Assembly (NCBI GenBank): GCA_903894975.1
Contig: CAITSE010000074.1
Coordinates: 1 to 60,058 of the forward strand
DNA: 60,058 bases
Direction of reading: 5' to 3'
Source: an uncultured Lentisphaerota bacterium
Lineage (GTDB): Bacteria > Verrucomicrobiota > Lentisphaeria > Oligosphaerales > CAITYL01
The notes under the pieces are model-generated. The model did not search any database. It saw only the letters and a program-made list of their open reading frames with translations, and was not told the DNA's origin. Below are positions 2,755 through 60,058 of the stretch, one piece after another; position 1 is the first letter of the stretch, and the number at the start of each line of letters is the position of its first letter. A program made the position numbers and the translations under genes.

Positions 2755-3100
2755 CTAGCCTGATCTATTCATGAACACGGTGAAAACCCTTTTTGATCCC
2801 CAATCCGTTTTGCTCGCTAAATACGCGAAATTTCGCGAAAAAAGCCGAAATCGCAGTTCCCTCGGAAGCCCCGGCGGGCATGCGCGTCAACTTAAGGATT
2901 TGAGTCTCTTTGTACCGAGGCACAGCATCTTTGGAGTGCGGTGGCTTGACACCGCTTTCCCCGGCGGCGGAGCCGCCATCCCACGCATAGTTCAACTCCC
3001 ATGCCCTGACAGAAGCGGAGACGTCAGACAGGAGGCCGGTTCCACCGGCGGGAAAAAGCGGCGTCCAGCCGCCGACACTCCAAAGCGGCGCGGACGCCGC
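2755..3100. repeat. Composite structured repeat, copy 1: module A (2755-2890, starts with the six-frame-stop motif) plus module B foldback (2891-3100, stem 2929-2977 / 3034-3085)
   Basis: About 85% identical by eye to 13278-13675, with module A inverted there. Module B arms CTTTGGAGTGCGGTGGCTTGACACCGCTTTCCCCGGCGGCGG / CCACCGGCGGGAAAAAGCGGCGTCCAGCCGCCGACACTCCAAAG are complementary. Module A contains the palindrome CGCGAAATTTCGCG. Confidence 0.8.
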
Positions 3101-3115
3101 GGTCAAGGCAGAGAA

Positions 3116-4123: not shown

Positions 4124-4230
4124 ATCTTAAGGGGCCAGCCGCAGGTGATACACATTTTTCATTCAAGGAGATAGAGACTGTAGTCTTCAAACCGAAGGAT
4201 TACCAAGCACAAAAGCTATATAAAACATTC

Positions 4231-4318
4231 TCTCACGGAGGCACGGGGGCACGGTGAAGAGGATCGATATTTCGCAACGGATCCAAGGCCTTCCCCGTGC
4301 CTCCGTGTCTCCGTGAGA
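4231..4318. repeat. Word-arm foldback hairpin (CACGG words)
   Basis: TCTCACGGAGGCACGGGGGCACGGTGAAG ... CTTCCCCGTGCCTCCGTGTCTCCGTGAGA. The arms are imperfectly complementary. Intergenic between divergent genes. Confidence 0.7.
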
Positions 4319-4443
4319 AGCCAAACGCGGCGGAGCCCTGAACCGCAGGCCGGATTGCCTATGTCACATTCCCCGGACAAAAATTGCCGGGGCCATTGAC
4401 TCGCGCCTGGAATGCATGGATATTGAGGGAGGAGAATCTCATC

Positions 4444-4863: not shown

Positions 4864-4938
4864 TTGAACAGAAGGCCGCAAAGGGCACAAAGCTGTTTAG
4901 GTTGAAGCGGGTTGAGATCTTTGCGAGCTTCTGTTCAA
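4864..4938. repeat. Word-arm foldback hairpin with conserved base TTGAACAGAAG...CTTCTGTTCAA (GCAAAG words)
   Basis: TTGAACAGAAGGCCGCAAAG (4864-4883) pairs with CTTTGCGAGCTTCTGTTCAA (4919-4938). Same base sequence as 12096-12171, with half copies at 23546-23574, 13680-13697 and 24655-24681. Confidence 0.75.
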
Positions 4939-4958
4939 AATCAAAAGAGGGTTTAATC

Positions 4959-5723
4959 ATGGCGGATCAACCGGCGGCGGTGGTGACGGGCGGCGCCCAA
5001 GGCATCGGCAAGGCGATCACGCAACTGTTGCGGCGACACGGCTGGCGCGTCGCGGTCCTGGATCGGGACGGCGAGGCCGGCGAAGCGCTGCTGGCCGAAG
5101 ACTCCGGAAAGAACGAACTACGCTTTTTCCAGGTTGACGTCGGCGAAGAGGCCGCGGTGATCGAGACTGCCGAGGAGGCGCTGGCGGCGCTCGGCCGGCT
5201 CGACGGCCTGGTCAACAACGCCGGCATCGGCGGCGCCGGCTGGGGCCGGCCGATCGAGGACCTGCAGCTAGCGGATTGGAACCGGGTGCTGGCCGTGAAC
5301 CTGACCTCGCATTTCCTCTGCGCCAAGCTGTTCGCCCCGGCCCTGCGCGCCGTTAACGGCGCCATCGTCAATATCGCCTCCACCCGCGCGTTCCAATCCG
5401 AGCCCAACTCCCTGGCGTACAGCGCGAGCAAGGGCGGCGTGGTGGCGCTGACCCATGCCCTGGCAGTGAGCCTGGGGCCGGCGGTCCGCGTCAACTGCGT
5501 CAGCCCCGGCTGGATCGAGTGCGGCCCGTGGCAGAAACCCGCGAAGCGCACACAGCCGGTGCACAGCGAAGCCGACTGCCTCCAACACCCCTGCGGCCGG
5601 GTCGGTACGCCAGAGGACATTGCGGAGCTGGCGGCCTTCCTGCTCTCGCCCGCCGCCGGGTTTGTCACCGGCCAGAATTTCGTCGCCGACGGTGGCATGA
5701 CGAAAAAAATGATCTACGCCTGA
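4959..5723 (+). CDS. SDR family oxidoreductase
   Basis: TGGAQGIGKA cofactor motif, NNAG, and the catalytic YSASK. RBS AAGAGGG precedes the ATG at 4959. Confidence 0.85.
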   Translation: MADQPAAVVTGGAQGIGKAITQLLRRHGWRVAVLDRDGEAGEALLAEDSGKNELRFFQVDVGEEAAVIETAEEALAALGRLDGLVNNAGIGGAGWGRPIEDLQLADWNRVLAVNLTSHFLCAKLFAPALRAVNGAIVNIASTRAFQSEPNSLAYSASKGGVVALTHALAVSLGPAVRVNCVSPGWIECGPWQKPAKRTQPVHSEADCLQHPCGRVGTPEDIAELAAFLLSPAAGFVTGQNFVADGGMTKKMIYA

Positions 5724-5766: not shown

Positions 5767-6735
5767 CTATCCGGCGACGATACGGCCGTGGCCGGCGAAG
5801 GGGTAATCAATGACGACCCGGCCTTCCTCGCAGTCGCCGATGCCGCTGTAGAGGTCAGCTTTGCCGTCGGGGCGCATGCCCAAACCGGAAGTGAAGGCGC
5901 AGTCTATCAACTCCGGACGCTTGCCGGGGCCGGACGGGTAGCAGGAGCGGGTGCCGATGATCTTGAGATCCAGCGCCTGGTGCCGGACGGGGTCGAAGAC
6001 GAAGGAAACGTTCAGATACGTCAGGATCGGCTGCCCGTCCGCGCCGGCGCGCTTGTAGCACTTGTGGCCGGCGACGCCGATGCGCCCGCTGTCCAGGAGG
6101 TAGGCCTGGTTGCAGCCACCCCATTCACCTTGGCCGAAGAGACCGGGGATGACGGGGGCATTTTCCACCACATCGGCCGACAGATCGTCCAAGCGGTCGA
6201 TCACGGCGAACCCGATCACCGATTCGCTGCCGTACTGCTTCCGGACCTGCTCGCTGCGCGGTCGTGAAAACACGCCGATCCGGCCGTCGGCCAGGCAGAC
6301 CAGACGGATGTCCTTCATATGCTCCGGGCCGGTGGTGAAATACACGAGGTCATGCAAGTCATTGCCGCGGTAGAAATAACCATAATAGGTGTCCAGCTTT
6401 CCCTGCCGGAAGCGGACGTGGGTGCCGCCGAGGACAAGTTCGTCGCCGATAAAGCTAACATAGGGATCTTCGAGCTGGTAGATCATGGACCCGGGGACTA
6501 GTGTCCAATCGTCCGTTCCCGTGCGCTCGAAAAGCCGCACCCAGGAACGGGTCCATTCGCGGCGCCGCTCGACCCGGCCGAAGATGTATTCCCGGCCACG
6601 CCAGGTGAAAGGGATGGACGTGTTGTAGACGTCAAAACCCTCAACCCCGTGGAAGGTCAATCTTGCGTGTTCGTAGATGCTTTTCGCGGCTTCAAAATCG
6701 GCGCGTTCGGCGGCCAAGTTCATGGCGAACTCCAT
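5767..6735 (-). CDS. DUF1861-like beta-propeller protein (GH130/GH43-like fold), function unknown
   Basis: Coherent ORF of about 320 aa (..YNTSIPFTWRGREYIFGRVERRREW.., ..GEWGGCNQAYLL..). The family name is from memory of DUF1861 sequences. An alternative start ATG at 6723 forms an ATGA overlap with the upstream stop. Confidence 0.55.
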   Translation of the reverse strand: MEFAMNLAAERADFEAAKSIYEHARLTFHGVEGFDVYNTSIPFTWRGREYIFGRVERRREWTRSWVRLFERTGTDDWTLVPGSMIYQLEDPYVSFIGDELVLGGTHVRFRQGKLDTYYGYFYRGNDLHDLVYFTTGPEHMKDIRLVCLADGRIGVFSRPRSEQVRKQYGSESVIGFAVIDRLDDLSADVVENAPVIPGLFGQGEWGGCNQAYLLDSGRIGVAGHKCYKRAGADGQPILTYLNVSFVFDPVRHQALDLKIIGTRSCYPSGPGKRPELIDCAFTSGLGMRPDGKADLYSGIGDCEEGRVVIDYPFAGHGRIVAG

Positions 6736-8849
6736 TGCCTCAGGTTCAGCGGGTTTTTCTTCAGGACCCGGAAGAGGTTGCTGTAATCGTCGGTCCACAG
6801 GACGCGGGACGCGGGCTTGACGTCCAGCGGCTCCGAGGCGGCCGCCACCTCGGGATTCGCGAGAAACACACGGTTATTCGTCAGCAGAACCCATTCCGAC
6901 AAATAGGCGCCCGGGTCTGAATCTTTGTCGGTGGAAACACCAATCGCGGCCAGGTGAAACTGGTCGGCCAGGGCGGCGATGACGGGATTGAGATTCAAAT
7001 GATGGTTGGTGATGTGGACGGCGAGGATGCCGTCCGGTTTCAGGTGCCGGAGATACACCACGAAGGCTTCACGGGTGAGAAGGTGGACGGGGATGGCGTC
7101 GCTGCTGAAGGCGTCGAGGGCAAGGATGTCGAACCGCTGATTCATGCCATCGCGGCTTTCCTCTTCCAGGGACAGCCGGGCATCGCCCATCTTGATTTCA
7201 ACGATGGCGTGGGAGTCTTTCAAATAGGTAAAGTATTCATTAGCCAGTTGCCGGACCTGCTCGTTAATCTCATAGAACCGGATGACGTCTTGCGCGCCGG
7301 GCCGGCCCCAGGCCGCGATGGTGCCGGCGCCGAGGCCGACGACCCCGATCCGGCGCGGTCCCTGCTGCGGGCAGTGCTGCACGGCCAGGCCGATGCCGGA
7401 GGATGGCGCGTAATAGGAAACCGGCAGTTGCCGCTTCGTTTCGTCCCGAAACTGCATGCCGTGATCGGTCGTGCCGTGGCAGAGGCGGATCTGGCGTTCG
7501 CGTCCGTCTTCCCCTTCCACGTCACAGAAATACACCCGCAACACCCCGAAGAAATTCCGCCGGACCGCGAGATTCCCCCCGAGAAAATCAGAAACCTGCC
7601 GGCTCAGGCCGACGCCCAACCCCAGCAGAGCGGCGATCAGGAGCGCGGCCACCCACCGCGGCCGGCCGCGGTACAGCCGGCAGGCGGGATCGGTGAACAG
7701 ACACGCCAGGGCCAGCGCGCCGCACAACAGCAGTCCCGCGTGCAGTTCCAGGTACATCGGAAAGAGCAGCGGCGCCGCCACTCCGGCCAGAATACCGCCC
7801 AGGGCGCTGCCACCCGAAGAAGTCAGGTAGAACGCGGTCAACCGGGCAGGTTCCGGCCGCAGCCGGTACAATTCGCCGTGACAGACCATGCAGCAAAAGA
7901 ACAACGCCGCCGTGTAATACAGCACCAACAGTCCCAGGTTCAGGGAATTGTCCTTGCTGAGCAACGCCACGACGAACAACATGCCGACCGCCATGTACGA
8001 GAGATGGAACGGCCGCCGGTAGAAGCGCTCCCCGCTGAAAGTCAGGATGTAGGAGAGCAGATACACGCCCAGCGGCAGGATCCAGAGGAACGGAATGGTC
8101 GCGATGTCCATGCACATCTGATTGGTAAACGCCAGGAGCATGATGCTCGACACCGCGGGGAAGCAGAACCAGAAAACGACCCGGCGCCCCCCAGCCATGC
8201 CTGCGGGCCGCGTCTCCGGTCCGGCCGCGGCCTCTGCGGCGGCGGGAACCGGCGCAAACCCCGTGTCAGTCCGGCTTTTTGCCGCCACCCAGACGCAGAC
8301 GCCGCAGAGCACGGCGAACCCCGCGTAACCCCACGACCAGGAGACGGCCTGAACGCGCAGGCGGAAAACCGGTTCGAACACAAAGGGATAGGAGACCAGG
8401 GCCAGGAGCGACCCGGCATTGGAAAGGGCGTACAGCGCGTAGGGTTTCCGGCCCGGACAGGCGCGCCCGAACCAGGCCTGGAGCAGCGGACTGGTGGCCG
8501 AAAGACAGAAATACGGCAGCCCCACGGCCCCGCCTAGGATGAGCAGAATCCGCAACACCGGATCTTCCGCGCCCTCGGGCTTCCACCCGGCGCCGGGAAT
8601 AATCGGCAGCACCAGCAGCGTGGCGCCCAGCAGCAGACCGTGCACCAGCGCCTGCCGCCGCCATGTCAGTTTTTGCAGGACATGCGCATACGCATACCCG
8701 GCGAAAAGCAGGACCTGGAAGAACAGCATGCAAGTCGTCCAGACCGCCGGCGTCCCGCCGAACCAGGGCAGAATCCACTTACCGATCAGCGGCTGGACCT
8801 GAAAAAGCAAAAACGCGCTGGTGAAAATGGTGAACGCATACAAAATCAT
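6720..8849 (-). CDS. fused polytopic membrane / spermidine synthase-like protein
   Basis: N-terminus MILYAFTIFTSAFLLFQVQPLIGKWILPWFGGTPAVWTTCMLFFQ plus many TM helices. The C-terminal SpeE-like domain has VVGLGAGT and LDAFSSD. The ATG at 8849 follows the upstream stop (TGAcATG). Confidence 0.8.
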   Translation of the reverse strand: MILYAFTIFTSAFLLFQVQPLIGKWILPWFGGTPAVWTTCMLFFQVLLFAGYAYAHVLQKLTWRRQALVHGLLLGATLLVLPIIPGAGWKPEGAEDPVLRILLILGGAVGLPYFCLSATSPLLQAWFGRACPGRKPYALYALSNAGSLLALVSYPFVFEPVFRLRVQAVSWSWGYAGFAVLCGVCVWVAAKSRTDTGFAPVPAAAEAAAGPETRPAGMAGGRRVVFWFCFPAVSSIMLLAFTNQMCMDIATIPFLWILPLGVYLLSYILTFSGERFYRRPFHLSYMAVGMLFVVALLSKDNSLNLGLLVLYYTAALFFCCMVCHGELYRLRPEPARLTAFYLTSSGGSALGGILAGVAAPLLFPMYLELHAGLLLCGALALACLFTDPACRLYRGRPRWVAALLIAALLGLGVGLSRQVSDFLGGNLAVRRNFFGVLRVYFCDVEGEDGRERQIRLCHGTTDHGMQFRDETKRQLPVSYYAPSSGIGLAVQHCPQQGPRRIGVVGLGAGTIAAWGRPGAQDVIRFYEINEQVRQLANEYFTYLKDSHAIVEIKMGDARLSLEEESRDGMNQRFDILALDAFSSDAIPVHLLTREAFVVYLRHLKPDGILAVHITNHHLNLNPVIAALADQFHLAAIGVSTDKDSDPGAYLSEWVLLTNNRVFLANPEVAAASEPLDVKPASRVLWTDDYSNLFRVLKKNPLNLRQWSSP

Positions 8850-9362: not shown

Positions 9363-10304
9363 TTAATAAGGCCCCAAAAACCTTGAGCCGTTAAAATGGA
9401 TCATGTGCGTGGGGGATTCCGCCATCCAAACTTCCGTTTCCCAGGCAATTTCGGCAAGATACCGCCCCATAATAGAACGGTTCGGAAATGCTGTGACATA
9501 AACCAGTCCCGCCGTGGATGGCGAAAATAGCCGGGCAAGTTCATTATGCCGCTTACCATCCATCGGCCCGTGACTTGTCACCGATTCGATAAGCACCAGC
9601 CAATTCTTGGAGGGATGATGGACAACGACATCTGGCATTTTCCCATGCTCGTCCAACGCCACTCCTAAACGGGCAAGGGCGCTCCGGTCGAAGTAACCCC
9701 ATTTGTCGCCGGTATCACCGGCATAAACCAATATTCCGTTTGGGATGAAACGTGGGACAAATTGTTCGATGATCGCCTTAATAAGCTCATTGTGCTTCCC
9801 CGGCGAGAGCTGGATCTTCTGTCCCGTGGGAAGCAGGACTGGCATAACAGTCATCTTGCGTTCCATCGCGTAACGCTCTGCCAGTGGCTTATTATTTTTC
9901 AGGTATTCGGCAAGAGCGGTTCCCCATTCCAGCGTTCTATATATTTTTAGAAGCGCTAATGCCGCCGGGGCGATCTGGTAAACGGCATTCGGGCTGTTGG
10001 TTGGACGCGTCGGATCATCGGGATTGTAGAGCGCAATCCCCGCCTGAACCAACTGGTGCATGGAAAACCTTCGGAACGTTTCCCGGCTGTTAGGCGCGTA
10101 TTTTCGTGAGTATTGCGCTTTGGCAAATTCCATCATGGGCGTAATGCCAATGAGGGGCGAGGCGGCTTCAGACCAACTTTTCGCGTTGGTCACATCAACA
10201 AGTGCCAGCAGGCAAAGCGCACTACGGTCGTTGTGTTGCGCTTTTGGCATGCCCAATGCCTTCAAAATTGCCAAGGCTTCCGTGATGTGATTCTTCCGCT
10301 TCAT
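9363..10304 (-). CDS. BsuBI/PstI-family type II restriction endonuclease
   Basis: 313 aa. Overall resemblance to the BsuBI/PstI REase family, including the C-terminal block (..LVLIESVTSHGPMDGKRHNEL.., ..ETEVWMAESPTHMIHFNGSRFLGPY). Its ATG overlaps the stop of the adjacent methylase (ATGA at 10301-10304). Visibly lower GC than the flanks. Confidence 0.8.
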   Translation of the reverse strand: MKRKNHITEALAILKALGMPKAQHNDRSALCLLALVDVTNAKSWSEAASPLIGITPMMEFAKAQYSRKYAPNSRETFRRFSMHQLVQAGIALYNPDDPTRPTNSPNAVYQIAPAALALLKIYRTLEWGTALAEYLKNNKPLAERYAMERKMTVMPVLLPTGQKIQLSPGKHNELIKAIIEQFVPRFIPNGILVYAGDTGDKWGYFDRSALARLGVALDEHGKMPDVVVHHPSKNWLVLIESVTSHGPMDGKRHNELARLFSPSTAGLVYVTAFPNRSIMGRYLAEIAWETEVWMAESPTHMIHFNGSRFLGPY

Positions 10305-11800
10305 GCTATCGCCCGTATCCGTTCATCTATTTGTTCCTGAGTGACATCTTCCGCCTGCTTTAGCCAGCGACCGAGACGCATTAACGCCTGGCGGCTCGGG
10401 TATTTCAGGGAGCGCAGGTCGGTCGCATTAACTTGCGTATGGCCGCTGAACGCGCGGATGTTTTGGTCCAGCATGGCCGAGTTCAGATACGCGCAGAGCC
10501 CGTGGGCCAGCTCTTGCGGAAGGCCTTGTTTGCCGCTGTGGAAAACATTCAGATGATTTTCAAAACCAATCCACGCGCCGCCGGGAAGATCGTCCGGTTT
10601 CACCACGGTGGCCATCACGCGCCGCTTCTCCTCTTTGGACGAAAACCGGCGCACAATGGTATAACAGCCACTTGGGTACAACCACCGGCGCGTCTCGTCG
10701 TGCAACGCGATGGCGTTGGGTTTTTTGGATTTTTCCAGCGGCCACAAGAGGCGATTGCCGGTAAAATGGCAGGGGTAAAGCAAGGGTACGCTATCTGCTG
10801 TCGGCAACGCCCGGAGATAAGACTTCATCCGGAAATCCACCACCGGCCCGGTGGAAACTTCCACACCAAGGTCGGCCAGCGTGTGGCAGAATTGGCGGCC
10901 TAATCCAGCCGATGCGGTTTTTTCAATCGCTGGAATATGAATGAATCCCTCATGATCTCCGGGTTTGACGATCTCCGAAAAATCGCAGATGCGTTCCATA
11001 TAATCGCCAAAGGTATCGTCAGCGCAATGGGAAACGATGACCTGCCCCTGGGGCGTGCCCCGAACCAGTTTGAGGATGACATTCTCCTGCAATACCTCAT
11101 CATCCTTGAACGCCGTGTTGCGGGAGCCGAATAAATGGATGTGCTCGATAGAGGCAATGCCTCGTATGAATTCCCGGAACGGCTTGTAGTACGGGCCATT
11201 GCAGAAACTGCGCGGAATGATCGCCACCAACTCGCCGCCATCCATCAGCAGTTGCACGGAAAGCGCCACAAAGGCCGAGTAGAGATTGACGGTTTCAATC
11301 CCATTCGTTCGCAACCACTTCCGATGCATGGAATCGTTGCTGATTTTTTTGTAGGGGGGATTCAGGATGGCATGCGTGAAATCTGCCCGCGTTCCAAACT
11401 CAAGCGGATTGGCGGCGGCCTGGATGAAGTCATACGGCAGGATGGTTGTCCCCAATGTTCGCGCTTGCGTGACTACCTCGTCCCGGCAGGCCGCCATATG
11501 GCATTCCAAATGTTTGCGGAGTTCGCTATCAATCTCGTAGGCTGTGACGTCCAGTGCGGAGTCCGCACCGGCGCGCGGCTGCCAACTGTGAATGAATGCC
11601 GCCGACAGTGCCCCCAGTCCGGCTCCGGGATCAAGCAGGCGGATACGGCTGCCGGGCTGGATGGAAAACAGCGAGGCCATGTATCGGGCGACGCTGGCTG
11701 GCGTCATGAATTGTCCGAGCGCCGACCGCCGCTCCGCTTGGAGATTTGCGGAAATCCCCCTCCTGGCGGAGTCGATACTTTGGACTGCTGATCCAATCAT
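10301..11800 (-). CDS. N6-adenine DNA methyltransferase (M.PstI/M.BsuBI-like, gamma class)
   Basis: LLDPGAGLGALS (motif I) and ILNPPYKKI (motif IV). The ATG at 11800 is preceded by GGGAGAAG. An alternative upstream ATG at 11851 would overlap the methylase stump. Confidence 0.8.
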   Translation of the reverse strand: MIGSAVQSIDSARRGISANLQAERRSALGQFMTPASVARYMASLFSIQPGSRIRLLDPGAGLGALSAAFIHSWQPRAGADSALDVTAYEIDSELRKHLECHMAACRDEVVTQARTLGTTILPYDFIQAAANPLEFGTRADFTHAILNPPYKKISNDSMHRKWLRTNGIETVNLYSAFVALSVQLLMDGGELVAIIPRSFCNGPYYKPFREFIRGIASIEHIHLFGSRNTAFKDDEVLQENVILKLVRGTPQGQVIVSHCADDTFGDYMERICDFSEIVKPGDHEGFIHIPAIEKTASAGLGRQFCHTLADLGVEVSTGPVVDFRMKSYLRALPTADSVPLLYPCHFTGNRLLWPLEKSKKPNAIALHDETRRWLYPSGCYTIVRRFSSKEEKRRVMATVVKPDDLPGGAWIGFENHLNVFHSGKQGLPQELAHGLCAYLNSAMLDQNIRAFSGHTQVNATDLRSLKYPSRQALMRLGRWLKQAEDVTQEQIDERIRAIA

Positions 11801-11826
11801 GTCACTTCTCCCACTCGTCAAATACA

Positions 11827-11991
11827 CTAATAAAGATTTGGTAAAATGCAAGCGCGGAAAATGTTTTTCTTGAAAAACGGGTCAAGGAATTCGCGGCGGA
11901 GCTGGGTTTCGTTGTAGCCGTCGCCCTGGTAGGCCTCGCGCTGTTCCCGGAACCGTGCCACCAGTGCCAAAATGAGTGCCGGAGCCACCAT
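11827..11991 (-). pseudogene. N-terminal stump (about 40 codons) of a large Eco57I/PglX-type DNA methyltransferase
   Basis: MVAPALILALVARFREQREAYQGDGYNETQLRREFLDPFFK matches the conserved N-terminus (..Y.S..YNET..R.EF..PFF..) of type IIG/BREX-like methylases. Similarity ends abruptly about 30 nt before the R-M cassette and the frame stops at 11827. Confidence 0.55.
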
Positions 11992-12061: not shown

Positions 12062-12230
12062 CTACCCGGGATTATTCACACCCGGTTCGCATTCATTGAA
12101 CAGAAGACCGCAAAGATTAGGCAAGTGTCTGGATTGGAAAATCCTTCGTGCTCTTTGCGAGCTTCGGTTAAAAATGGGTTTGACAAAATCGGGGATCCAG
12201 ATGAATCTGTCCATGAATAGCTCAGACGAA
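12062..12230. repeat. Decayed miniature element: foldback 12096-12171 flanked by degenerate copies of the six-frame-stop motif
   Basis: TTGAACAGAAGACCGCAAAG (12096-12115) pairs with CTTTGCGAGCTTCGGTTAA (12153-12171). Flanks GGGATTATTCACAC (about 12068-12081) and CCATGAATAGCTCAG (12211-12225) resemble the motif ends seen at 48293-48435. Confidence 0.5.
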
Positions 12231-12650: not shown

Positions 12651-12893
12651 AGCCCCGGAGGGGCGACATTGGGGGTGGGGGCTGGCGCGATTGCCAGTTA
12701 TGCCGCCCCCTCCGGGGGCTGAAAATCTTTATCTACTCCATGACCGGGGGCTCACGCCCCCGGCTACTTACTACCGCCCCGGCGGGCATGCGCGTAAAGT
12801 CAAGTACCACCGGCTAAGCCGGTGGCTTGTTGGACGCTTCGCTTGGGCCGCTCAAAGCGGCTATTCGTTGAGGTTTTGCCGTCTAAAGACGGC
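12651..12893. repeat. Array of five short GC-rich hairpins downstream of the tnpA remnant
   Basis: Hairpins: 12651-12720 (AGCCCCGGAGGGGCG/CGCCCCCTCCGGGGGCT), 12744-12763 (CCGGGGGC-tcac-GCCCCCGG), 12807-12825 (CCACCGG-CTAAG-CCGGTGG), 12847-12861 (GCCGC-TCAAA-GCGGC) and 12878-12893 (GCCGTC-TAAA-GACGGC). A module-A fragment CCCCGGCGGGCATGCGCGTAAA lies at 12777-12798. Confidence 0.55.
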
Positions 12894-12897
12894 GGTG

Positions 12898-13158
12898 TTA
12901 GTTACAGCCAGGCAACGCGAGTTGCTGATCCAATTGAGACTCCGAGTGCTTCGGGGGGATGCTCAGCAGCATATGCACATGGTCGATGCATAGGTTGCCT
13001 TCTTCGATCTTGCACTCCTTGTGGGATGCCAACTCGTGGAAAACCGAGCCGAGGGACTTGCGCACCTGCCCGTACAGCGTCTTCCGGCGATACTTGGGGA
13101 TGAACACGACGTGGCACTTGCATTCCCACCGGGTGTGCGCTAGACTTTTTTCTCTCAT
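12898..13158 (-). mobile_element. tnpA: IS200/IS605-family TnpA (Y1/HUH transposase), 3'-truncated remnant
   Basis: MREKSLAHTRWECKCHVVFIPKYRRKTLYGQVRKSLGSVFHELASHKECKIEEGNLCIDHVHMLLSIPPKHS matches the IS200 TnpA N-terminal half, including the HxH motif (HVHML). Similarity is lost after ..SIPPKHSESQ, so about half the protein, including the catalytic Tyr region, is missing. A CCCCGG-CTAA-GCCGGGG hairpin lies at 13248-13264 on the 5' side. Confidence 0.8.
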
Positions 13159-13277
13159 GGGTACTTCCTTCCGTTCTGAGCTTTGCTACGGCCCAAGCGA
13201 AGGAGTACCCTATTCTATTCCCGCAAATGTCGAACTTTGAGAGTCTCCCCGGCTAAGCCGGGGGGCTACCTGTTTTA

Positions 13278-13675
13278 CTTAAGGATTTGTGTTCCCCTAT
13301 ACCGATGCGGAGCATCCTTGGAGTGCCTGCGGCTTGACGCAGCTTTCCCCGGCGGCGGAGCCGCCTCTCCCACGCATGATCCAAACTCCCGCACCCAGAC
13401 AGAAGCGGAGAAATCAGACAAAGGCCGGTTCCACCGGCGGGAAAAAGCGGCGTCGAGCCGCCGGCACTCCAAAGCGGCGAGGACGCCGCAGTAAATACCC
13501 ATAACAATTTAAAGTATAATGCATAATGGTTCTTACGTTTACGCGCATGCCCGCCGGGGCTTCCGAGGAGAATGCGAGTTCGGCTTTATGTTCGCGAAAT
13601 TTCGCGTATTTAGCGGGCAAACCGGATTGGGGATCAAAAAGGATCTCCGTCTTGTTCATGAATAGATCAGGTTAG
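13278..13675. repeat. Composite structured repeat, copy 2: module B foldback (13278-13489, stem 13316-13365 / 13423-13473), AT-rich spacer, inverted module A (13531-13675) ending in the six-frame-stop motif
   Basis: Alignment by eye to 2755-3100. Module B has the same orientation and module A is the reverse complement. The motif GTTCATGAATAGATCAGGTTAG is at 13654-13675. Confidence 0.8.
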
Positions 13676-13808
13676 CGCCCTTCTGTTCAACGAATTCGAG
13701 GAGGTCGATTTTTCGCGAGCGGCATTTCCTTTGCCGCGGTCGGAATCATATTGTGGAATGAACGGCGGCCGCCCTCCTCCCGCCCGCCCTTCCACAAGGG
13801 AGTTTTTC

Positions 13809-14644: not shown

Positions 14645-14687
14645 ACAAAAAAGGACGCGACCGCCGGAGCGGTTGCGTCCTTTTTTT
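14645..14687. terminator. Bidirectional Rho-independent terminator between pyrH (+) and rplT (-)
   Basis: A6-GGACGCGACC-gccggagc-GGTTGCGTCC-T7. There is an A-tract on one side and a T-tract on the other. Confidence 0.7.
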
Positions 14688-23513: not shown

Positions 23514-23587
23514 TATCTCCGTCAAGAAAAGACCGAAACCGTTTTTTGAACAGAAGCCCGCAAAGAACACAAAGGGATCGATCTCTT

Positions 23588-24625
23588 ATGACGCTCCAAA
23601 TCGGCATCATCGGCCTCGGCTTCATGGGCCGCTGCCATTTCGAAACCTGGGCGAAAGTTCGCGGCGCGCGCCTCGCCGCCGTCTGCGACATCGACCCGCG
23701 CAAGCGCGCCGGCGACTGGTCCGGCACCGCCGGCAATCTAGGCGGCAGCGCCGCCCGGACCGATCTTTCCGGCCTCCGGATCTATGCCCGGGCGGAGGAG
23801 ATGTTCGCGGATCCGGACCTGGATGTGGTGGACATCACCCTGCCCACATACCTGCACGCCGAGTATGCCGTGGCAGCCCTGCGCGCCGGCAAACATGTAA
23901 TCTGCGAGAAACCGATGGCCCGCACCTCGACCGAGGCGCGCCGGATGCAGGCGGCGGCGAAAGCGGCCAATCGCCAGCTCTGCGTGGCCCAGTGCATCCG
24001 CTTTTGGCCGGCCTATGCTGTCGCGGCGGAACAGGTCCGGACCGGCAAGCTCGGCCTCGTCGTCTCCGCTACCTTCCGTCGGGTGTCGCCGAAGCCGACT
24101 TGGAGCTGGAAAAACTGGCTGATGGACGAAACGAAAAGCGGGGGCTGCGTCCTCGACCTGCACATCCACGACGCCGATTTCGTCCTTTCCCTGTTCGGGC
24201 CGCCCCAGGCGGTGTCGAGCCAAGGCAGCGCCGCCGGCCCGGGCGGCGTCGACCATGTCATCACCTCCTACCGTTATGCCGATGGCAAACTGGTGACGGC
24301 CGAAGGCGCCTGGGAGCACACCGCGGGCTTCCCCTTCAGCATGACCTTCGTCCTCGCCGGCGAAAAGGCGAGCCTGACCCTGGCGGAAGACGGCAAGCTG
24401 CGGCGACATGACGCCAAGGGCACGAACGTCCTCCCGGTCCCGGAGGGCGACGGGTACCTGCACGAGCTGCAACATTTCGCCGGCTGCCTCGCCCGGAACC
24501 GGCCGTCCTCCGTGGTGCCGCCAGGCGCCGCGGCGGCCAGCGTGGCGCTCATCGCCGCCGAAATGACCTCCCTGAAACGCGGCCGCGAAGTCCGGATGAA
24601 ACTGTCGGATCCCAGGGGGTACTAG
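23588..24625 (+). CDS. Gfo/Idh/MocA family oxidoreductase
   Basis: MTLQIGIIGLGFMGRCH.. and CEKPMA motif. The TAG stop (24623-24625) lies inside the six-frame-stop motif. Confidence 0.85.
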   Translation: MTLQIGIIGLGFMGRCHFETWAKVRGARLAAVCDIDPRKRAGDWSGTAGNLGGSAARTDLSGLRIYARAEEMFADPDLDVVDITLPTYLHAEYAVAALRAGKHVICEKPMARTSTEARRMQAAAKAANRQLCVAQCIRFWPAYAVAAEQVRTGKLGLVVSATFRRVSPKPTWSWKNWLMDETKSGGCVLDLHIHDADFVLSLFGPPQAVSSQGSAAGPGGVDHVITSYRYADGKLVTAEGAWEHTAGFPFSMTFVLAGEKASLTLAEDGKLRRHDAKGTNVLPVPEGDGYLHELQHFAGCLARNRPSSVVPPGAAAASVALIAAEMTSLKRGREVRMKLSDPRGY

Positions 24626-24681
24626 CCTGAACTATTCATGAACCACTTCGTGAGCTTTGTGACCTTCTGTTCAACGAATTC
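24622..24681. repeat. Six-frame-stop motif (24622-24643) plus half foldback arm (24655-24681)
   Basis: CTAGCCTGAACTATTCATGAAC followed by CTTTGTGACCTTCTGTTCAACGAATTC. The last 18 nt are identical to 13680-13697. Confidence 0.8.
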
Positions 24682-42439: not shown

Positions 42440-42562
42440 GGATCAGACTCCGGGGAGAGCGCGACAATCCGCCCAGTTTAGCCCCGGAAACCGCTCTGTC
42501 AACGAAATCCCCGCCGCGTTCAGCGATGCCGTGAAGCCCGTTCCGTTCTTCCGTTTTTTCGT

Positions 42563-43597
42563 TCACGGGGCTTTCCGCCGGCATTCCCCGAGCGGGCCGA
42601 TCAGTCCCGCCAGCGATGCCGCGCCCTGCCCGTCCAGCCAGGCCCTGGCCGGTTTGTCCTCCAGAAGAAATGCCTGCAAAAACGCCAAGGAGGTTTGCTG
42701 GATCGCCGGTTGCAGGCGCGCGTCCAACTCCCGCCTTTTTGCCGGCTGGGATCCGGTGCCGGCGCGGCCGCTGAACACCATGTGGTCGCCGCCGGTGAAA
42801 ATCACCAGGTACTCCGGCACGCCGGCGATCCGTTCATAGGGCTCCAGCCGTTGCGCCGGCGTCACATCGCGGATCGGGCTGTGATCCTCCGTTCCCGTCA
42901 TGTGCAGGCAGGGAATCCGAATGCTCCGGTACACGGCGTCCGGCCCCACCGGCGCCGGGCTGAGGATCACCGCCGCCTTGATCTCCGGCAGGACCGGCAC
43001 GCCGGGGACCGGGAATCCGCCGGCTACCGCCGCCGTCCACAGACTGGTGTTCGCCCCGAACGAATGCCCGGCGATGCCGATCCGTTCCAGGTCCAGCCGG
43101 CCCCGGAATCGGGGATCCTCCCGGACCAGGCGCTTCAGTTCCGCCACCGCAAAGGCCACATCTTCAATCCGCGCCCGGGCCTGCTCCAGGTTCGCCGCGA
43201 GCCGCAAGTCCACCAGCGCCCCGAGCCCCTTCCCGCGCCAGACCGACTCGTCGCTGCCCGGGTGCTGAAGATGCACCACGGCCAGGCCGTGCTCCGCCCA
43301 ATACCGCCCGAGAAATTCATAGCCGTCGCGGCTCCCGCCCAGGCCATGGGAGAACAGGACCACCGGCACAGGCGTTACCGCGGCGCCGGGCCGGACCGCC
43401 GGCAGGTACCACTTCACCGGAATCGTCCGCTGCCGGGCCGCGTCCCGCCAGTCCATGGAGAACTCTTCCACGGCACCGGAGGACGCGATGGACATTATGG
43501 ACTCTGTGGACGCAATGGACGCCGCGGCGGAGACTTCCGGCATGGGGGTGGTCACAGCGGTCAGCATTCCGGCCAGCATCAGCGGTCTCAGGTTCAT
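42563..43597 (-). CDS. secreted alpha/beta hydrolase (PAF-acetylhydrolase / lipase-like)
   Basis: Signal peptide, ..VVLFSHGLGGSRDGY.., and the nucleophile elbow GHSFG. Confidence 0.7.
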   Translation of the reverse strand: MNLRPLMLAGMLTAVTTPMPEVSAAASIASTESIMSIASSGAVEEFSMDWRDAARQRTIPVKWYLPAVRPGAAVTPVPVVLFSHGLGGSRDGYEFLGRYWAEHGLAVVHLQHPGSDESVWRGKGLGALVDLRLAANLEQARARIEDVAFAVAELKRLVREDPRFRGRLDLERIGIAGHSFGANTSLWTAAVAGGFPVPGVPVLPEIKAAVILSPAPVGPDAVYRSIRIPCLHMTGTEDHSPIRDVTPAQRLEPYERIAGVPEYLVIFTGGDHMVFSGRAGTGSQPAKRRELDARLQPAIQQTSLAFLQAFLLEDKPARAWLDGQGAASLAGLIGPLGECRRKAP

Positions 43598-43695: not shown

Positions 43696-43810
43696 TATTC
43701 GCGTTCATTCGCGTTTATTAGCGGTTCAAGAAGAAGGAACATATTTTTACCGCATAATTATATAACATTCTCTTTTTTAACCGCTAATGAACGCTAATGG
43801 ACGCTAATGA
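43696..43810. repeat. Word-arm foldback hairpin (10-nt CGCTAATGRA words)
   Basis: TATTCGCGTTCATTCGCGTTTATTAGCGGTT (43696-43726) pairs with AACCGCTAATGAACGCTAATGGACGCTAATGA (43779-43810), with an AT-rich 52-nt loop. A decayed module-A-like stretch of TTCGCG words follows at about 43925-43981. Confidence 0.75.
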
Positions 43811-43975
43811 ATTTTGAATTGAAAATGCGGCTTTGTGACTAGTATATGATCAATTTGATCTGTAATTGGGATTACACCACGTTTCCGCGGCGTTGTCAGG
43901 GGCCGCGACATGGAACGCTCCGATCACTTTCGCGCTTTTTCGCGTGTTTCGCGGGCAAATCGGCTCGCGCACCGA

Positions 43976-45321: not shown

Positions 45322-46692
45322 TCATAGCCCAAAGAGGTCGCGAGGACGTTGGTAACAAAGGTGACGAACCAGGCGTTCGGCGAGAGTCGTGGGAATCTGG
45401 CCGTGCTCGACCATGCCGCCGACCACGTCGCAGAGGACGCGCCGGAACATTTCATGCCGCGAGCCGTAACTCATGAGCTTGCGCGAGTCGGAAACCATGC
45501 CGGCGGAGTTCCAGAGCAGGTCCACGGAACCGATGTATTCGAGCTGACGTTTCATGCCGATGGGCGAGTCGTTGAGCCACCAGGCCGAACCCAGGCTGAC
45601 CTTAACGCCAAAGGCGCGGGTGAGCGCGGCCAGCGTGGCCTGGTGCCCGGGCTCGAGGCAGTAGATCACGACCTTGAGCCGGTCGTCGAAGCGGTTGAGG
45701 AAATCGCGGAGCGGCACGACGATGTCGATGGTGTGGTTTGAGATGTCGCCGCCGGAGTCGGGCCCGACATTCTTAAACAGGCTGCCACGGATGTCGCGGA
45801 CACAGCCGAGATGGAGCTGGAAGACCCAGCCCTTCTCGGCGTCCATGGCGCCGAAAGAATGGAGGAGGAAGGACATGTACGCCTGCTGTTCCGCCGCGGT
45901 GAGCGGCTTGCCGGCGCGGGCCTTGCGGAAAAGCGCGTCGGCATCGTCATAGGGCACGTCCAGAGCCCAGGGCGTTTCCACGCCATGGTCGCTGGCCACA
46001 CAGCCGTTGGCGGCGAAGTAATCATGCCGTTCCTTGAGGAAGGTCAGGAGTTCGGCGAGGTTGCGGAACTTGGCGCCGGCGACCGTTTCGCAGCGGCCGA
46101 TGTAGTCGTTCCAGTCGGGCTTGAAAATGTTCATCGCCTTGTCCGGACGGTAGGTCGGGCGGACCACGCCGGCGATGGGGCTGGCGGCCAGGGCGCGGTG
46201 GTGCTCCAGGGTGTCCAGCGGATCGTCCGTGGAACACATCCGTTCGACCTTCTGCGCCTGAAGCAGGGCCTGCGGCTTCATGGCCGGGGTCTTGAGCTGC
46301 TTGAGGGCGGCGTCCCAGATCTTGCGGCCGGTGGCGGGGCTGATGACTTCCTCGATGCCGAAGCGGCGGCGCAGGTCCAGGTGTACCCATTCAAAGGTGG
46401 GGCTGCCGGCAAATTCCTCGAAGACATTGCTTAAGGACAGCCATTTCTCCTCGTTGGAGACTTCGGTGCCGGTGATGTATTTCTCCGGCACGCCGCGCTT
46501 GCGCAGCATTTCCCAGACGTAATGGTCGGTGGCGGCCTCGGCCTCCCAGAGATCGGCGCTGGCGTGATTTTCGGCGATGGCCTTGACGTCGGCGTGGTTG
46601 TGGGCGTCAATGATCGGCAGGCCGGCGACGGTCTCATAAAGCGCCCGCGCCGTGGCGTTGCCGAGCAGATAGTTTTCGTCCAGGAAGCTCAT
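45322..46692 (-). CDS. uxaC: glucuronate isomerase
   Basis: MSFLDENYLLGNATARALYE..LPIIDAHNH.. and full-length UxaC-like organisation, 456 aa. Confidence 0.9.
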   Translation of the reverse strand: MSFLDENYLLGNATARALYETVAGLPIIDAHNHADVKAIAENHASADLWEAEAATDHYVWEMLRKRGVPEKYITGTEVSNEEKWLSLSNVFEEFAGSPTFEWVHLDLRRRFGIEEVISPATGRKIWDAALKQLKTPAMKPQALLQAQKVERMCSTDDPLDTLEHHRALAASPIAGVVRPTYRPDKAMNIFKPDWNDYIGRCETVAGAKFRNLAELLTFLKERHDYFAANGCVASDHGVETPWALDVPYDDADALFRKARAGKPLTAAEQQAYMSFLLHSFGAMDAEKGWVFQLHLGCVRDIRGSLFKNVGPDSGGDISNHTIDIVVPLRDFLNRFDDRLKVVIYCLEPGHQATLAALTRAFGVKVSLGSAWWLNDSPIGMKRQLEYIGSVDLLWNSAGMVSDSRKLMSYGSRHEMFRRVLCDVVGGMVEHGQIPTTLAERLVRHLCYQRPRDLFGL

Positions 46693-46937: not shown

Positions 46938-47136
46938 CAAAAAATGGATTGGTGTAACAGCGGAGTGGCGTGAGAGGATCATCCGAACTAAAAAACCATG
47001 TAACCGTGCCTTAAAAGACAGGTTTGACACCAATGACGCACCAATGACGCTTTGAAAAAGCAGGCGGGGCGAAATTCGCTGGCGGCACCTGACGAGATCC
47101 TCTCGCCAACGTTCTCTTCCGCCAGCGGATTTCGCC
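46938..47136. repeat. Two adjacent foldbacks: a decayed CACCAATGACG-word hairpin (about 46938-47054) and the GGCGAAAT hairpin (47068-47136)
   Basis: GACACCAATGACGCACCAATGACGC (47026-47050) is a tandem word pair. GGCGAAATTCGCTGGCGG (47068-47085) pairs with CCGCCAGCGGATTTCGCC (47119-47136). Confidence 0.6.
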
Positions 47137-47229
47137 ACGTCCGGCTGTTGTCAAATGGAAACGTGGCCACTGCCACCCTCCAGGGGGTGTCGGGGGATGG
47201 GAGGATGCCATCCCCTGACTCTTAACCGC

Positions 47230-48165
47230 TTACGGCGACGGTGCGGTGCCGAGGGCGGCGCGGAGGGCGGGGAGGGTTTGGAGTACGCGCGGGCCGGGCT
47301 TGAGCAGGAGGTTGGTGTCGAAGCCGCCGAACACCCGGTTGTCGCGCACGGCCCGGAGCTGGTTCCAGCCGGTGCGTTCGCGAAAGGCCGCGGTCTGGGA
47401 CGGTGCTTTGGCGGCGTCGTTCAGGCAGAGCACAACTTCGGGATCGCGGACCAGAACCCATTCGGCGGAGACCGCGGCGTAATCGCGGTCAAAATCATCG
47501 GCAAGATTGCGGCCGCCGGCCAGGCGCACAAGTTCAGCGACAAAAGAGCTTTTCCCGGCGGTCATCAGCGGGTCCGGCCAGATTTCAATGAAGACGCCTG
47601 GCGCGCGGCCGGACGCCGGCAACGCCCGGCGGCAACGGGCGAGTTCGGCGGTGAATTCCGCCGCCATTTTCGTCGCGGCGGTTTCACAACCGATAGCGCG
47701 CCCGACTTCCAGGATGGCGGTCGGGATCTCCGTCAGGGTGCGGCAGGAAATGATTTTGCGAGTGATGCCGAGTTCTTCCACGCGCCGATCCAGGGCGGGA
47801 TCGGAAGAGTCCACCTGCAGGACCAGGTCCGGCCGCACCGCCACCAGTTTTTCCAGGGACGGCCGACAGAAGTCGCCGACGACAGGTACGCGCCCAATGA
47901 TCTCCGGAGGATACTCGCAGACCCGGCTGCGTCCCGCCAGGCGATCGCCGGCGCCGAGGGCGCAGATGATTTCAGTCAGGTTGGGCGAGAGCGAGACAAT
48001 GCGCCGGGCCGGCGCCGGCGGAACGGAGTCCGCAGCGGCGATCCGTCCACAACCGGCGGCCAGCCACACGCCGGAAAAGAGCAGAAAACGGAAGAGCAAA
48101 AGCCACGCCGCCCCCGGGGAACGCTTCCCGGGCCGACAGCGATCAGGATCAAGTCGGTTACTCAT
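47230..48165 (-). CDS. ABC-transporter periplasmic binding lipoprotein, BtuF/siderophore-binding family
   Basis: Lipobox ..VWLAAGC.., then ..RRIVSLSPNLTEIICALGAGDRLAG.., ..PDLVL.. The ATG at 48165 was verified. The longer track ORF extends into the hairpin repeat. No partner permease or ATPase in the window. Confidence 0.75.
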   Translation of the reverse strand: MSNRLDPDRCRPGKRSPGAAWLLLFRFLLFSGVWLAAGCGRIAAADSVPPAPARRIVSLSPNLTEIICALGAGDRLAGRSRVCEYPPEIIGRVPVVGDFCRPSLEKLVAVRPDLVLQVDSSDPALDRRVEELGITRKIISCRTLTEIPTAILEVGRAIGCETAATKMAAEFTAELARCRRALPASGRAPGVFIEIWPDPLMTAGKSSFVAELVRLAGGRNLADDFDRDYAAVSAEWVLVRDPEVVLCLNDAAKAPSQTAAFRERTGWNQLRAVRDNRVFGGFDTNLLLKPGPRVLQTLPALRAALGTAPSP

Positions 48166-48177
48166 TGAATACGAACG

Positions 48178-48280
48178 TCCAACATTCAACATTGAACATC
48201 CAACATCGAATCCAGAGCGACCCTGTGAATTCATGCGGGATTCAAGGTTGAAGGTTGGATGTTGAATGTTCAATATTTGG
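48178..48280. repeat. Word-arm foldback hairpin (CAACAT words)
   Basis: TCCAACATTCAACATTGAACATCCAACATCGAATCC pairs imperfectly with GGATTCAAGGTTGAAGGTTGGATGTTGAATGTTCAATATTTGG. It starts 13 nt upstream of the BtuF-like start codon. Confidence 0.75.
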
Positions 48281-48292
48281 GAATCATTCATG

Positions 48293-48435
48293 CTAACCTG
48301 AATTATTCACGAACCTGCCGGAATAGCCACAAAAGATCACAAGGGTACACAAAAAAATGCGCCATCCACCTTTGTGTTTCTTTGTGCTCTTTTGTGGCAG
48401 AAACGGTTTTCATCTCATGAATAGATCAGGCTAAG
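48293..48435. mobile_element. 143-bp MITE-like element: 22-nt terminal inverted repeats (six-frame-stop motif) around a CACAAA-word foldback
   Basis: Left end CTAACCTGAATTATTCACGAAC (48293-48314). Right end CTCATGAATAGATCAGGCTAAG (48413-48435) is its imperfect reverse complement. The internal hairpin is GCCACAAAAGATCACAAGGGTACACAAA / TTTGTGTTTCTTTGTGCTCTTTTGTGGC (48326-48398). No coding capacity. Confidence 0.6.
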
Positions 48436-59973: not shown

Positions 59974-60058
59974 GGGGTTCAGGGTTCAGGGCCGTGAAAG
60001 CAACTGTCAGATTGTGAAAGTGTTGTACATCCAGCAGACTCTGCCTCCTGAACCCTGA
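59974..60058. repeat. Word-arm foldback hairpin (TTCAGGG words), cut by the window end
   Basis: GGGGTTCAGGGTTCAGGGC (59974-59992) pairs with GCCTCCTGAACCCTGA (60043-60058). The loop contains repeated GTGAAAG words. Confidence 0.55.

Follow-up and report, generated by a model that had tools for sequence, protein, structure and literature searches.

The 60,058-nt stretch analyzed here (contig CAITSE010000074.1 of an uncultured Lentisphaerota bacterium) carries a series of foldbacks, long hairpins in most of which each arm is made of short tandem words. The window, as this stretch is called below, is the whole contig. Its gene content is of the Lentisphaerae type (GFO/MocA oxidoreductases, xylose-isomerase-like barrels, PEP-CTERM and DUF1559 proteins), and its UxaC protein (45322-46692, minus strand) reaches no more than 73% identity with proteins from Lentisphaeria and Victivallales metagenome-assembled genomes (MAGs). 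Rfam detected no rRNA gene in the window, and all foldback copies lie between protein-coding genes. Loci and contigs compared with the window bear L-numbers (L002, L006, L211, and so on), which are labels of this report; the Lentisphaerae comparison genomes included L002, L005, L006, L032, L050, and L054. We find it probable that the window foldbacks are gene-less copies, similar to miniature inverted-repeat transposable elements (MITEs), of small palindromic cassettes that elsewhere bracket a gene.

A preliminary description of the window had listed at least nine foldbacks of one design. RNA folding and repeat scans established seven of these loci as true foldbacks (4231, 4864, 12096, 43697, 48181, 48326, and 59974; Table 1). 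Relative to a chance baseline of 30 dinucleotide shuffles, in which the mean count was 0.03, an inverted-repeat scan detected 8 strong hairpins in the window; at least three tandem words in both arms were present in 3 to 4 of the window hairpins and in none from the shuffles. Repeat searches and Tandem Repeats Finder recovered the flagged arms and their internal periods. Window arms are 20 to 38 nt long and 81 to 90% complementary, with RNA-fold z scores of -4.8 to -9.5 (values for the decayed and truncated copies are in Table 1), resembling the long terminal stem of rRNA intervening sequences (IVSs). Other listed members did not hold up. The segment at 46938-47054 is a direct 11-mer present twice with no real inverted partner (z = +0.21), and the three TTCGCG sites assigned to a repeated segment, module A, are direct arrays only. 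The hairpin placed at 47068-47136 is a good one, but its arms lack tandem words. As originally described, the copies share a design while differing in their words, they sit at gene boundaries, and the half arms with their common 18-mer, CTTCTGTTCAACGAATTC, are present; the array at 42540 was an addition to that list.

Two of the hairpins recur in a separate assembly (sample ERZ27313164). The foldback at 43697-43808 is present in contig L081 with one single-nucleotide polymorphism (SNP), located in the foldback arm (43731 region) and the sole difference over 11.7 kb, and 47065-47139 recurs identically in contig L230; the compared assemblies are 99.99 to 100% identical. These recurrences indicate that the foldbacks are not assembly artefacts. 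Five contigs, four others (L081-L084) and the window itself at 60058, end inside foldbacks, indicating that such elements fragment short-read assemblies.

TABLE 1 Foldbacks, solo arms, and word arrays of the window
Position	Strand	Feature	RNA-fold z	Context
2815..2850	-	Direct array TTCGCG/TTCGCG/TTAGCG		In module A (2751-2896)
4231..4318	+	Foldback; CACGG x3 per arm, period 8; 29-nt arms, 90% complementary; 30-nt loop	-9.5	
4864..4938	+	Foldback; arm TTGA-ACAGAAG-GCCGCAAAG-GGCACAAAG, 3 related words, period 9	-5.05	
12096..12172	+	Decayed copy of 4864-type foldback	-2.5	
13575..13610	+	Same TTCGCG array as at 2815		In inverted module A copy (13532-13679, 89% identical)
13680..13697	-	Solo terminal fragment CTTCTGTTCAACGAATTC		Shares 18 identical nt with 24657-24674 and its flank
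23546..23574	+	Left arm TTGAACAGAAGCCCGCAAAGAACACAAAG		13 nt upstream of GFO/MocA oxidoreductase ATG
24646..24674	-	Right arm of GFO/MocA bracket		Within last 13 codons of convergent GT4 gene
42540..42564	-	Solo direct array GAACGAAA/AAACGGAA/GAACGGAA, period 8		Begins at hydrolase stop codon
43697..43734	+	Right-arm-type CGCNAATGRA array (ATTCGCG, ATTCGCG, ATTAGCG, then GCGG)		
43771..43808	+	Left-arm-type array TTAACCGCTAATGAACGCTAATGGACGCTAATGAA		Pairs with 43697-43734
43925..43955	+	Right-arm-type direct array CTTTCGCG/CTTTTTCGCG/TGTTTCGCGG, CGCGAAA words		Abuts FAD-oxidoreductase stop codon
47065..47139	-	21-bp hairpin, 33-nt loop, no tandem words	-6.3	
48181..48270	-	Foldback; AACATNN x4, period 7	-4.8	
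48326..48398	-	Foldback; CACAAA(G) x3	-5.6	
59974..60058	.	Foldback; GGGTTCA words	-2.8	Cut by contig end

The foldback at 4231 (RNA fold, -60.3 kcal/mol) separates a methyltransferase gene (minus strand) from a divergently oriented chagasin-like gene (plus strand). That at 4864, built of ACAGAAG, CGCAAAG, and CACAAAG words, ends 20 nt upstream of the ATG of a short-chain dehydrogenase/reductase gene, and the 48181 foldback ends about 15 nt upstream of the probable ATG (near 48165) of a periplasmic-binding-protein gene; the copy at 59974 is located 110 nt upstream of an AraC-family gene. In four copies (4231, 4864, 12096, and 48326), the words point towards the loop, which is the canonical orientation. 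Judged against the metagenome consensus given below, the 43697-43808 foldback (three words of period 10; 38-nt arms, 84% complementary; z = -5.2) is "inside-out," with the right arm preceding the left, and the same order was observed at the junction of two tandem foldbacks in L006. Both sides of the 48326 foldback are flanked by inverted copies of a motif, TTCATGAATAGATCAGGCTAG, that contains stop codons in all six frames (48289-48314 and 48414-48433). Its other copies are at 2756-2775, 13655-13674, and 24623-24642; every copy has a foldback arm no more than 60 nt away. The motif provides stop codons to at least three genes and was not found in 80 related Lentisphaerae loci. The core of the 47065 hairpin, GCGAAATCCGC, is shared with a 23-bp hairpin in the Lentisphaerae MAG L002.

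One pair of window arms encloses a whole gene. The arms at 23546-23574 and 24646-24674 are 79% complementary and have the complete GFO/MocA gene between them; the right arm begins 21 nt past the stop codon and encodes the final 13 residues of the convergent GT4 glycosyltransferase. This gene is bracketed in the same manner as the small cargo genes described below for other loci. The left arm is identical at 27 of 29 nt to an array in phage contig L089 (IMG/VR), in which the 29-mer directly precedes a Shine-Dalgarno sequence and an ATG.

The arm words, about three in tandem and 7 to 10 nt each, fall into families that recur within and beyond the window. The element TTGAACAGAAG, together with CGCAAAG or CACAAAG words, occurs at 4864, 4938, 12096, 13690, 23546, and 24674; with 0.5 expected in 60 kb, these six arm copies form a multicopy pattern of the kind seen for MITEs. 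CACAAAG/CGCAAAG words are present at five to six window loci and in L086, L097, L089, and L120, and words of the 4864 type also make foldbacks in L097 (an IMG/VR contig with a CACAAAG foldback) and L120. The word of the 43696 foldback, CGCNAATGRA, forms two tandem foldbacks in the Lentisphaerae MAG L006; five further Lentisphaerae genomes (L002, L005, L032, L050, and L054) show the same design with other words. IMG/VR contigs carry the same arrays and foldbacks, including the CGCNAATGRA type, and in one of them (L101) a 6-kb span contains three foldbacks, each with its own word. The pattern CCGCNAATGNACGCNAATGNACGC retrieved at least 120 metagenome stretches of GC content 0.44 to 0.72, and the figures given for this set hold among the matches listed. 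Of 137 such matches, 66 have an inverted partner, and several loci hold two or three CGCNAATGRA arrays. The word hardly varies among these contigs, and the same is true of phage contigs and of a second Lentisphaerae genome: the metagenome arm consensus is CCGC.AATG.ACGC.AAT..ACGC.AAT, in which CGC.AAT does not vary across the range of GC content.

The preliminary description had read the complementarity of arms with differing words as family-level covariation, which would place structure above primary sequence. The comparison did not support this interpretation. At the variable positions of the inner two words of the metagenome CGCNAATGRA family, the arms pair no better than chance. Over all variable positions, 143 complementary pairs were observed versus 124 expected, with the excess confined to the outer word and consistent with a lineage effect in which lineages prefer A or G throughout. 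The apparent covariation therefore arises mostly because both arms are arrays of the same conserved word, and a word that is invariant without compensatory change is a conserved sequence signature rather than a stem kept by compensation. Generation of the arms by a templated foldback mechanism, which that description had also envisaged, or by slippage is possible. The elements also turn over. The closest homologues of the window hydrolase are 73 to 74% identical and lie on short contigs; one, from another species (L086), has an upstream CCGCAAAAGGCACAAAGG array (CACAAAG) where the window has CGCTAATGRA.

Mutation alone offers one account of these arrays: slippage would generate them and intrastrand template switching would invert them, yielding neutral products with neither function nor mobility. 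Lentisphaerae loci are indeed full of short tandem arrays (periods 7 to 12), copies of the word within a single arm often carry the same variant, and the sole SNP in 11.7 kb between two assemblies falls in a foldback. Slippage does occur in a comparable setting, given that Coxiella strains differ in the copy number of the heptamer in their 23S IVS (PMC4990558). However, at least 120 unrelated contigs, and phages as well, carry 30-nt arms that are nearly the same, which a local origin cannot account for any more than for the precise bracketing of two gene families, described next. We consider a purely neutral origin quite improbable.

Loop lengths in the metagenome set are mostly 5 to 165 nt, with a separate class of 352 to 522 nt (again among the matches listed). 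All but one of these long loops contain a complete gene of the GxxExxY family (TIGR04256/PF13366, E = 1e-37 to 1e-43; L211, L159, L148, and L165), the 419-nt loop of L166 being the exception, in which no open reading frame (ORF) was recognised; L121, L213, and L203 are similar. The ATG of the gene lies inside the left arm (encoding MNANE...) and its stop codon adjoins the right arm. For the L211 protein (P0121), the database gene call itself begins at the in-arm ATG. Remnants of cargo in medium-sized loops were seen only in L148 and L219, the latter retaining an N-terminal GxxExxY remnant in a short loop. The converse search gave a concordant result: five loci fetched only by GxxExxY protein similarity (L224, L225, L226, L227, and L229) have inverted tandem-word arms, with the words CACGGAT, CGCGAAAAG, CACGAAAA, and CACGAAT (in detail, CCACGGATGAACACGGAA, TAACCGCAAAAGACGCGAAAAG, CACGAAAA, and CACGAATG). 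The CACGGAT-type arms bracketing the gene in L224 are akin to the words of the 4231 foldback, and the CGCGAAAAG-type arms in L225 compare with the array at 43925. More generally, the window words CACAAAG, CGCTAATG, and CACGG fit a continuum, C[AG]C[GA][GA]A[AT]G, shared with the arms of gene-bearing cassettes.

A second gene family is bracketed alike. Four-helix-bundle genes (TIGR02436 and TIGR04258) lie between such arms; three are found in L163, where the words differ from one gene to the next, and the Lentisphaerae MAG L002 has one at 4867-5722 with TCGACCGCAA arms. The named relatives of the GxxExxY proteins are from Bryobacteraceae. These proteins conserve the D...(E/D)xK residues of the PD-(D/E)XK fold and are not recognised transposases. 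Both the GxxExxY (PF13366) and the four-helix-bundle (PF05635, TIGR02436) proteins have been described as uncharacterised (PMC3424549, PMC11270868), and literature searches found only three papers that mention GxxExxY and none with the arm sequences. In L063, arrays of seven copies of ATCCGTACCC (6728-6808) and eight of its inverse (8149-8235) surround a 1.3-kb segment with two phage-like ORFs, an arrangement resembling the bracketing design on a larger scale.

Position relative to genes was evaluated for the 28 metagenome foldbacks with an identified gene on either side: convergent pairs flank 12 of them, tandem pairs 15, and a divergent pair 1 (P = 0.003). Most begin 0 to 30 nt past a stop codon. 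Such placement would suit noncanonical terminators or 3'-end stabilisers that arose in place, with stem stability under selection and the words a by-product of slippage. The stems are very stable, and L006 has two foldbacks between convergent genes. The foldbacks nevertheless lack U-tracts, as the preliminary description had noted; window loops are 17 to 36 nt long with no T-run, unlike intrinsic terminators. Canonical U-tract terminators are in use in the same window, at 134-168 after rpsU and, in bidirectional form, at 14647-14686, which sets the foldbacks apart as a separate class. Loops in the wider set reach 165 nt or hold whole genes, the primary sequence is invariant across a GC range of 0.44 to 0.72 with no compensatory changes, and several copies lie directly upstream of start codons or in divergent regions. 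Terminators or stabilisers formed in place are thus an unlikely explanation. Scans for sigma-70 promoters and terminators called none at the foldbacks or arms; these scans were uninformative. In Rfam, no foldback matched a bacterial family at the gathering score or at E ≤ 5, the only matches being spurious microRNA-precursor hits at 4228-4321.

Conserved, uncompensated words are also compatible with binding by a protein, and the foldbacks might be double-stranded DNA operator arrays (for regulators of the ribbon-helix-helix, OmpR, or AraC type) or integrase arm-type sites, symmetric around promoters. Such sites typically consist of short words repeated every 7 to 11 bp, in direct as well as inverted arrays, and the 59974 foldback is upstream of an AraC-family gene. 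In addition, the sequence TATATAA(A)ACATTCTCT adjoins two arrays (4212-4233 and 43755-43775), just 5' of the words at both; it stands outside the hairpin at one site and in the loop at the other, and may represent a -10 element with a transcription start. Operators, however, would be expected in the opposite position from the gene 3' ends that the metagenome foldbacks favour (1 of 28 divergent). The many words would require many regulators, none of which is adjacent; the promoter scan was blank at the arms, and the same arms bracket small genes of selfish appearance. As for integrases, three IMG/VR contigs (L098, L099, and L103) carry (AAATGAACGC)3-5 arrays beside tyrosine integrase genes. These arrays lack the CCGC terminal word and apparently form a separate class; they are probably arm-type attachment (att) sites that merely resemble foldback words. 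With only these three phage contigs fitting, we rejected integrase arm-type sites for the chromosomal foldbacks, and regard operator or integrase arrays in general as decidedly unlikely. Nor do the arms resemble integron attC sites: by inspection, no GTTRRRY cores were present at the arm ends, and the arms flank an ORF on both sides.

Several features recall the repetitive extragenic palindromic (REP) sequences of Proteobacteria and their composites, bacterial interspersed mosaic elements (BIMEs) and REP doublets forming hairpins (REPINs), which are moved by RAYT, a domesticated IS200-like Y1 transposase. Like them, the foldbacks are clustered intergenic imperfect palindromes that favour gene 3' ends and occur in mosaics with other short motifs (here the six-frame-stop motif); REP-type elements can also stabilise upstream mRNA. 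The window contains a Y1 transposase fragment (12898-13158, minus strand; PF01797, E = 1.7e-19) between inverted TTGAACAGAAG arms at 12096 and 13690. This fragment is, however, a truncated classical IS200 TnpA (residues 2-70, with the catalytic C-terminal half missing) lying 0.5 to 0.7 kb from the arms. The foldbacks have no GTAG-type head and no associated RAYT: their arms are internally repetitive tandem arrays that start with CCGC, CCAC, or TTGA words. The words also cross phyla, in contrast to the species-specific REP sequences. Around 137 arrays in 631 kb of metagenome loci, no Y1 gene was near an array, the single hit being 7.7 kb distant. This absence led us to reject a RAYT-driven origin, which we judge very improbable.

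Among known systems, rRNA IVSs (Salmonella, Leptospira, and Coxiella) have terminal inverted repeats that form a stem of 20 to 30 bp, exist with and without an ORF, and in some cases encode the S23p four-helix-bundle protein; in L163 and L002, genes of the TIGR02436 family stand between tandem-word arms. In the Coxiella 23S IVS, the terminal stem measures 28 bp and three GACAGAT heptamers stand in tandem ahead of the S23p ATG; excision of this element by RNase III was shown experimentally (PMC4990558). Unlike IVSs, the window copies lie between protein-coding genes rather than in 23S helices 25 or 45 and have no ORF, and the cassettes have a second cargo family, GxxExxY. MITEs resemble the foldbacks in their small size (70 to 115 bp), their terminal inverted repeats, the presence of multiple related copies in a genome, the existence of longer gene-carrying relatives with the same ends, and nested or tandem clustering; they differ in that no clear target-site duplication was seen for the foldbacks, the cargo is not a recognised transposase, and foldback ends are short tandem-word arrays conserved across phyla. 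Cyanobacterial short tandemly repeated repetitive (STRR) heptamers and the TAACTGA repeats of Beggiatoaceae are likewise intergenic tandem 7-nt words, often in two to six copies and often beside start codons (PMC4679880; bioRxiv 10.1101/2022.06.06.494920), but have been described as direct arrays, with one inverted case reported, and with no link to bracketed genes. Lentisphaerae and phage contigs also contain long STRR-like arrays of (TATGAAT)n, (CAGCATT)n, and (GAGCATT)n (L017 12422-12526; L019 2405-2534; L094, several). A different type of element, with a conserved "loop" of about 73 nt between 25-nt complementary arms of locus-specific sequence, was seen at L051 4455-4577, L071 17570-17694, and L076 21074-21191. 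In eukaryotes, the kilobase-scale Foldback (FB) transposons of Drosophila have long inverted arms of tandem short repeats; no relationship is implied.

The comparisons demonstrate an arm design, word families that recur across genomes, the bracketing of two gene families, and a preference for gene 3' ends. These observations support our reading of the window foldbacks as gene-less, MITE-like copies of palindromic cassettes, a class of small selfish DNA that is widespread and apparently undescribed. Each end of such a cassette would consist of about three tandem words of 7 to 10 nt, the two ends being inverted relative to each other. A full-length cassette would hold one small gene, of either the GxxExxY or the four-helix-bundle 23S rRNA IVS family, with its start codon in or just after the left arm and its stop codon just before the right. 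The classic 23S rRNA IVSs appear to be cassettes of this kind inside rRNA genes. The window copies may have arisen by loss of the internal gene or by the spread of gene-less copies.

Several observations weigh against this reading. Neither a GxxExxY nor a four-helix-bundle gene is present in the window; with no local autonomous copy, the link to the cassettes comes from shared arm design and words, and the sample contains no gene-bearing counterpart of the AACATNN and GGGTTCA words. Two window copies lie in divergent promoter regions, unlike the metagenome set, and the metagenome loci were picked by the CGCNAATGRA word itself, which biases gene-density comparisons. We found no clear target-site duplication and no presence/absence polymorphism that would demonstrate mobility, with no empty sites available for comparison; the four outermost nucleotides (TTAA, TTAG/CTAA, and TTGT/ACAA) are inverted rather than direct and hence part of the stem. 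Selection for RNA pairing received no support from inner-word covariation in the CGCNAATGRA foldbacks or from a sense-strand G.U bias (G.U, 18, versus A.C, 23, in 17 oriented metagenome foldbacks), and the corresponding window mismatches (11 versus 5) did not differ significantly. Finally, the arm words do not follow GxxExxY clades, and CGCNAATGRA arms bracket proteins only 38 to 46% identical. Such independence of arm word and protein phylogeny argues against each protein recognising its own arms, and the cargo protein may not be the reader of the words.

How such cassettes might spread and be tolerated can be sketched. When transcribed, the arms would pair into a long stem, a predicted substrate of RNase III, for which excision has been published for the rRNA copies only. 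Under read-through from host genes, the foldbacks could then act as RNase III processing or stabilising hairpins, which would render an insertion harmless. The conserved words may be recognition sites for the machinery that moves the cassettes, a candidate mover being the GxxExxY nuclease, which might work in trans, either at the arms themselves or at an extruded cruciform. More tentatively, in a model we regard as possible but less than probable, the foldbacks would be the nonautonomous form of mobile, hairpin-bracketed cassettes that cross phyla and integrate where DNA is transcribed (operon spacers, gene ends, phage genomes, and rRNA genes, in which they go by the name of IVSs), neutralising their own insertion through a stem cleavable by RNase III, with the arms read by mobility machinery, possibly a GxxExxY nuclease that cuts the extruded cruciform.

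Other repeats and genes of the window were also observed. Module A is inverted between its two loci (2751-2896 and 13532-13679) and lies on opposite sides of module B, a direct repeat of about 240 nt (2871-3106 and 13258-13495; 72 to 94% identical). Module B contains a hairpin with 36-nt arms (13318-13353 with 13437-13472) and may be a structured RNA or an insertion sequence end. In the repeat-rich region beside the transposase fragment, 12744-12788 (plus strand) is a near-threshold match to the Acido-Lenti-1 RNA (RF01687; 34.5 bits, with the gathering score at 37, and E = 4e-4 over the whole window). At 9363-11851 (minus strand), a gene for a BsuBI/PstI-type restriction endonuclease adjoins one for an Eco57I-like methylase.

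The elements have consequences for their surroundings: they break short-read assemblies and can give neighbouring genes stop codons, start codons, or new C termini. If the more tentative model of mobile cassettes is true, it would provide a function for two large orphan protein families, the very abundant GxxExxY and four-helix-bundle IVS proteins, and an origin for rRNA IVSs, whose origin and mobility have been open questions since 1990. Two gene families, the IVSs, and many gene-less intergenic hairpins have one tandem-word end design in common, and one 30-nt arm is nearly invariant over contigs of GC content 0.44 to 0.72, which makes the question directly testable.

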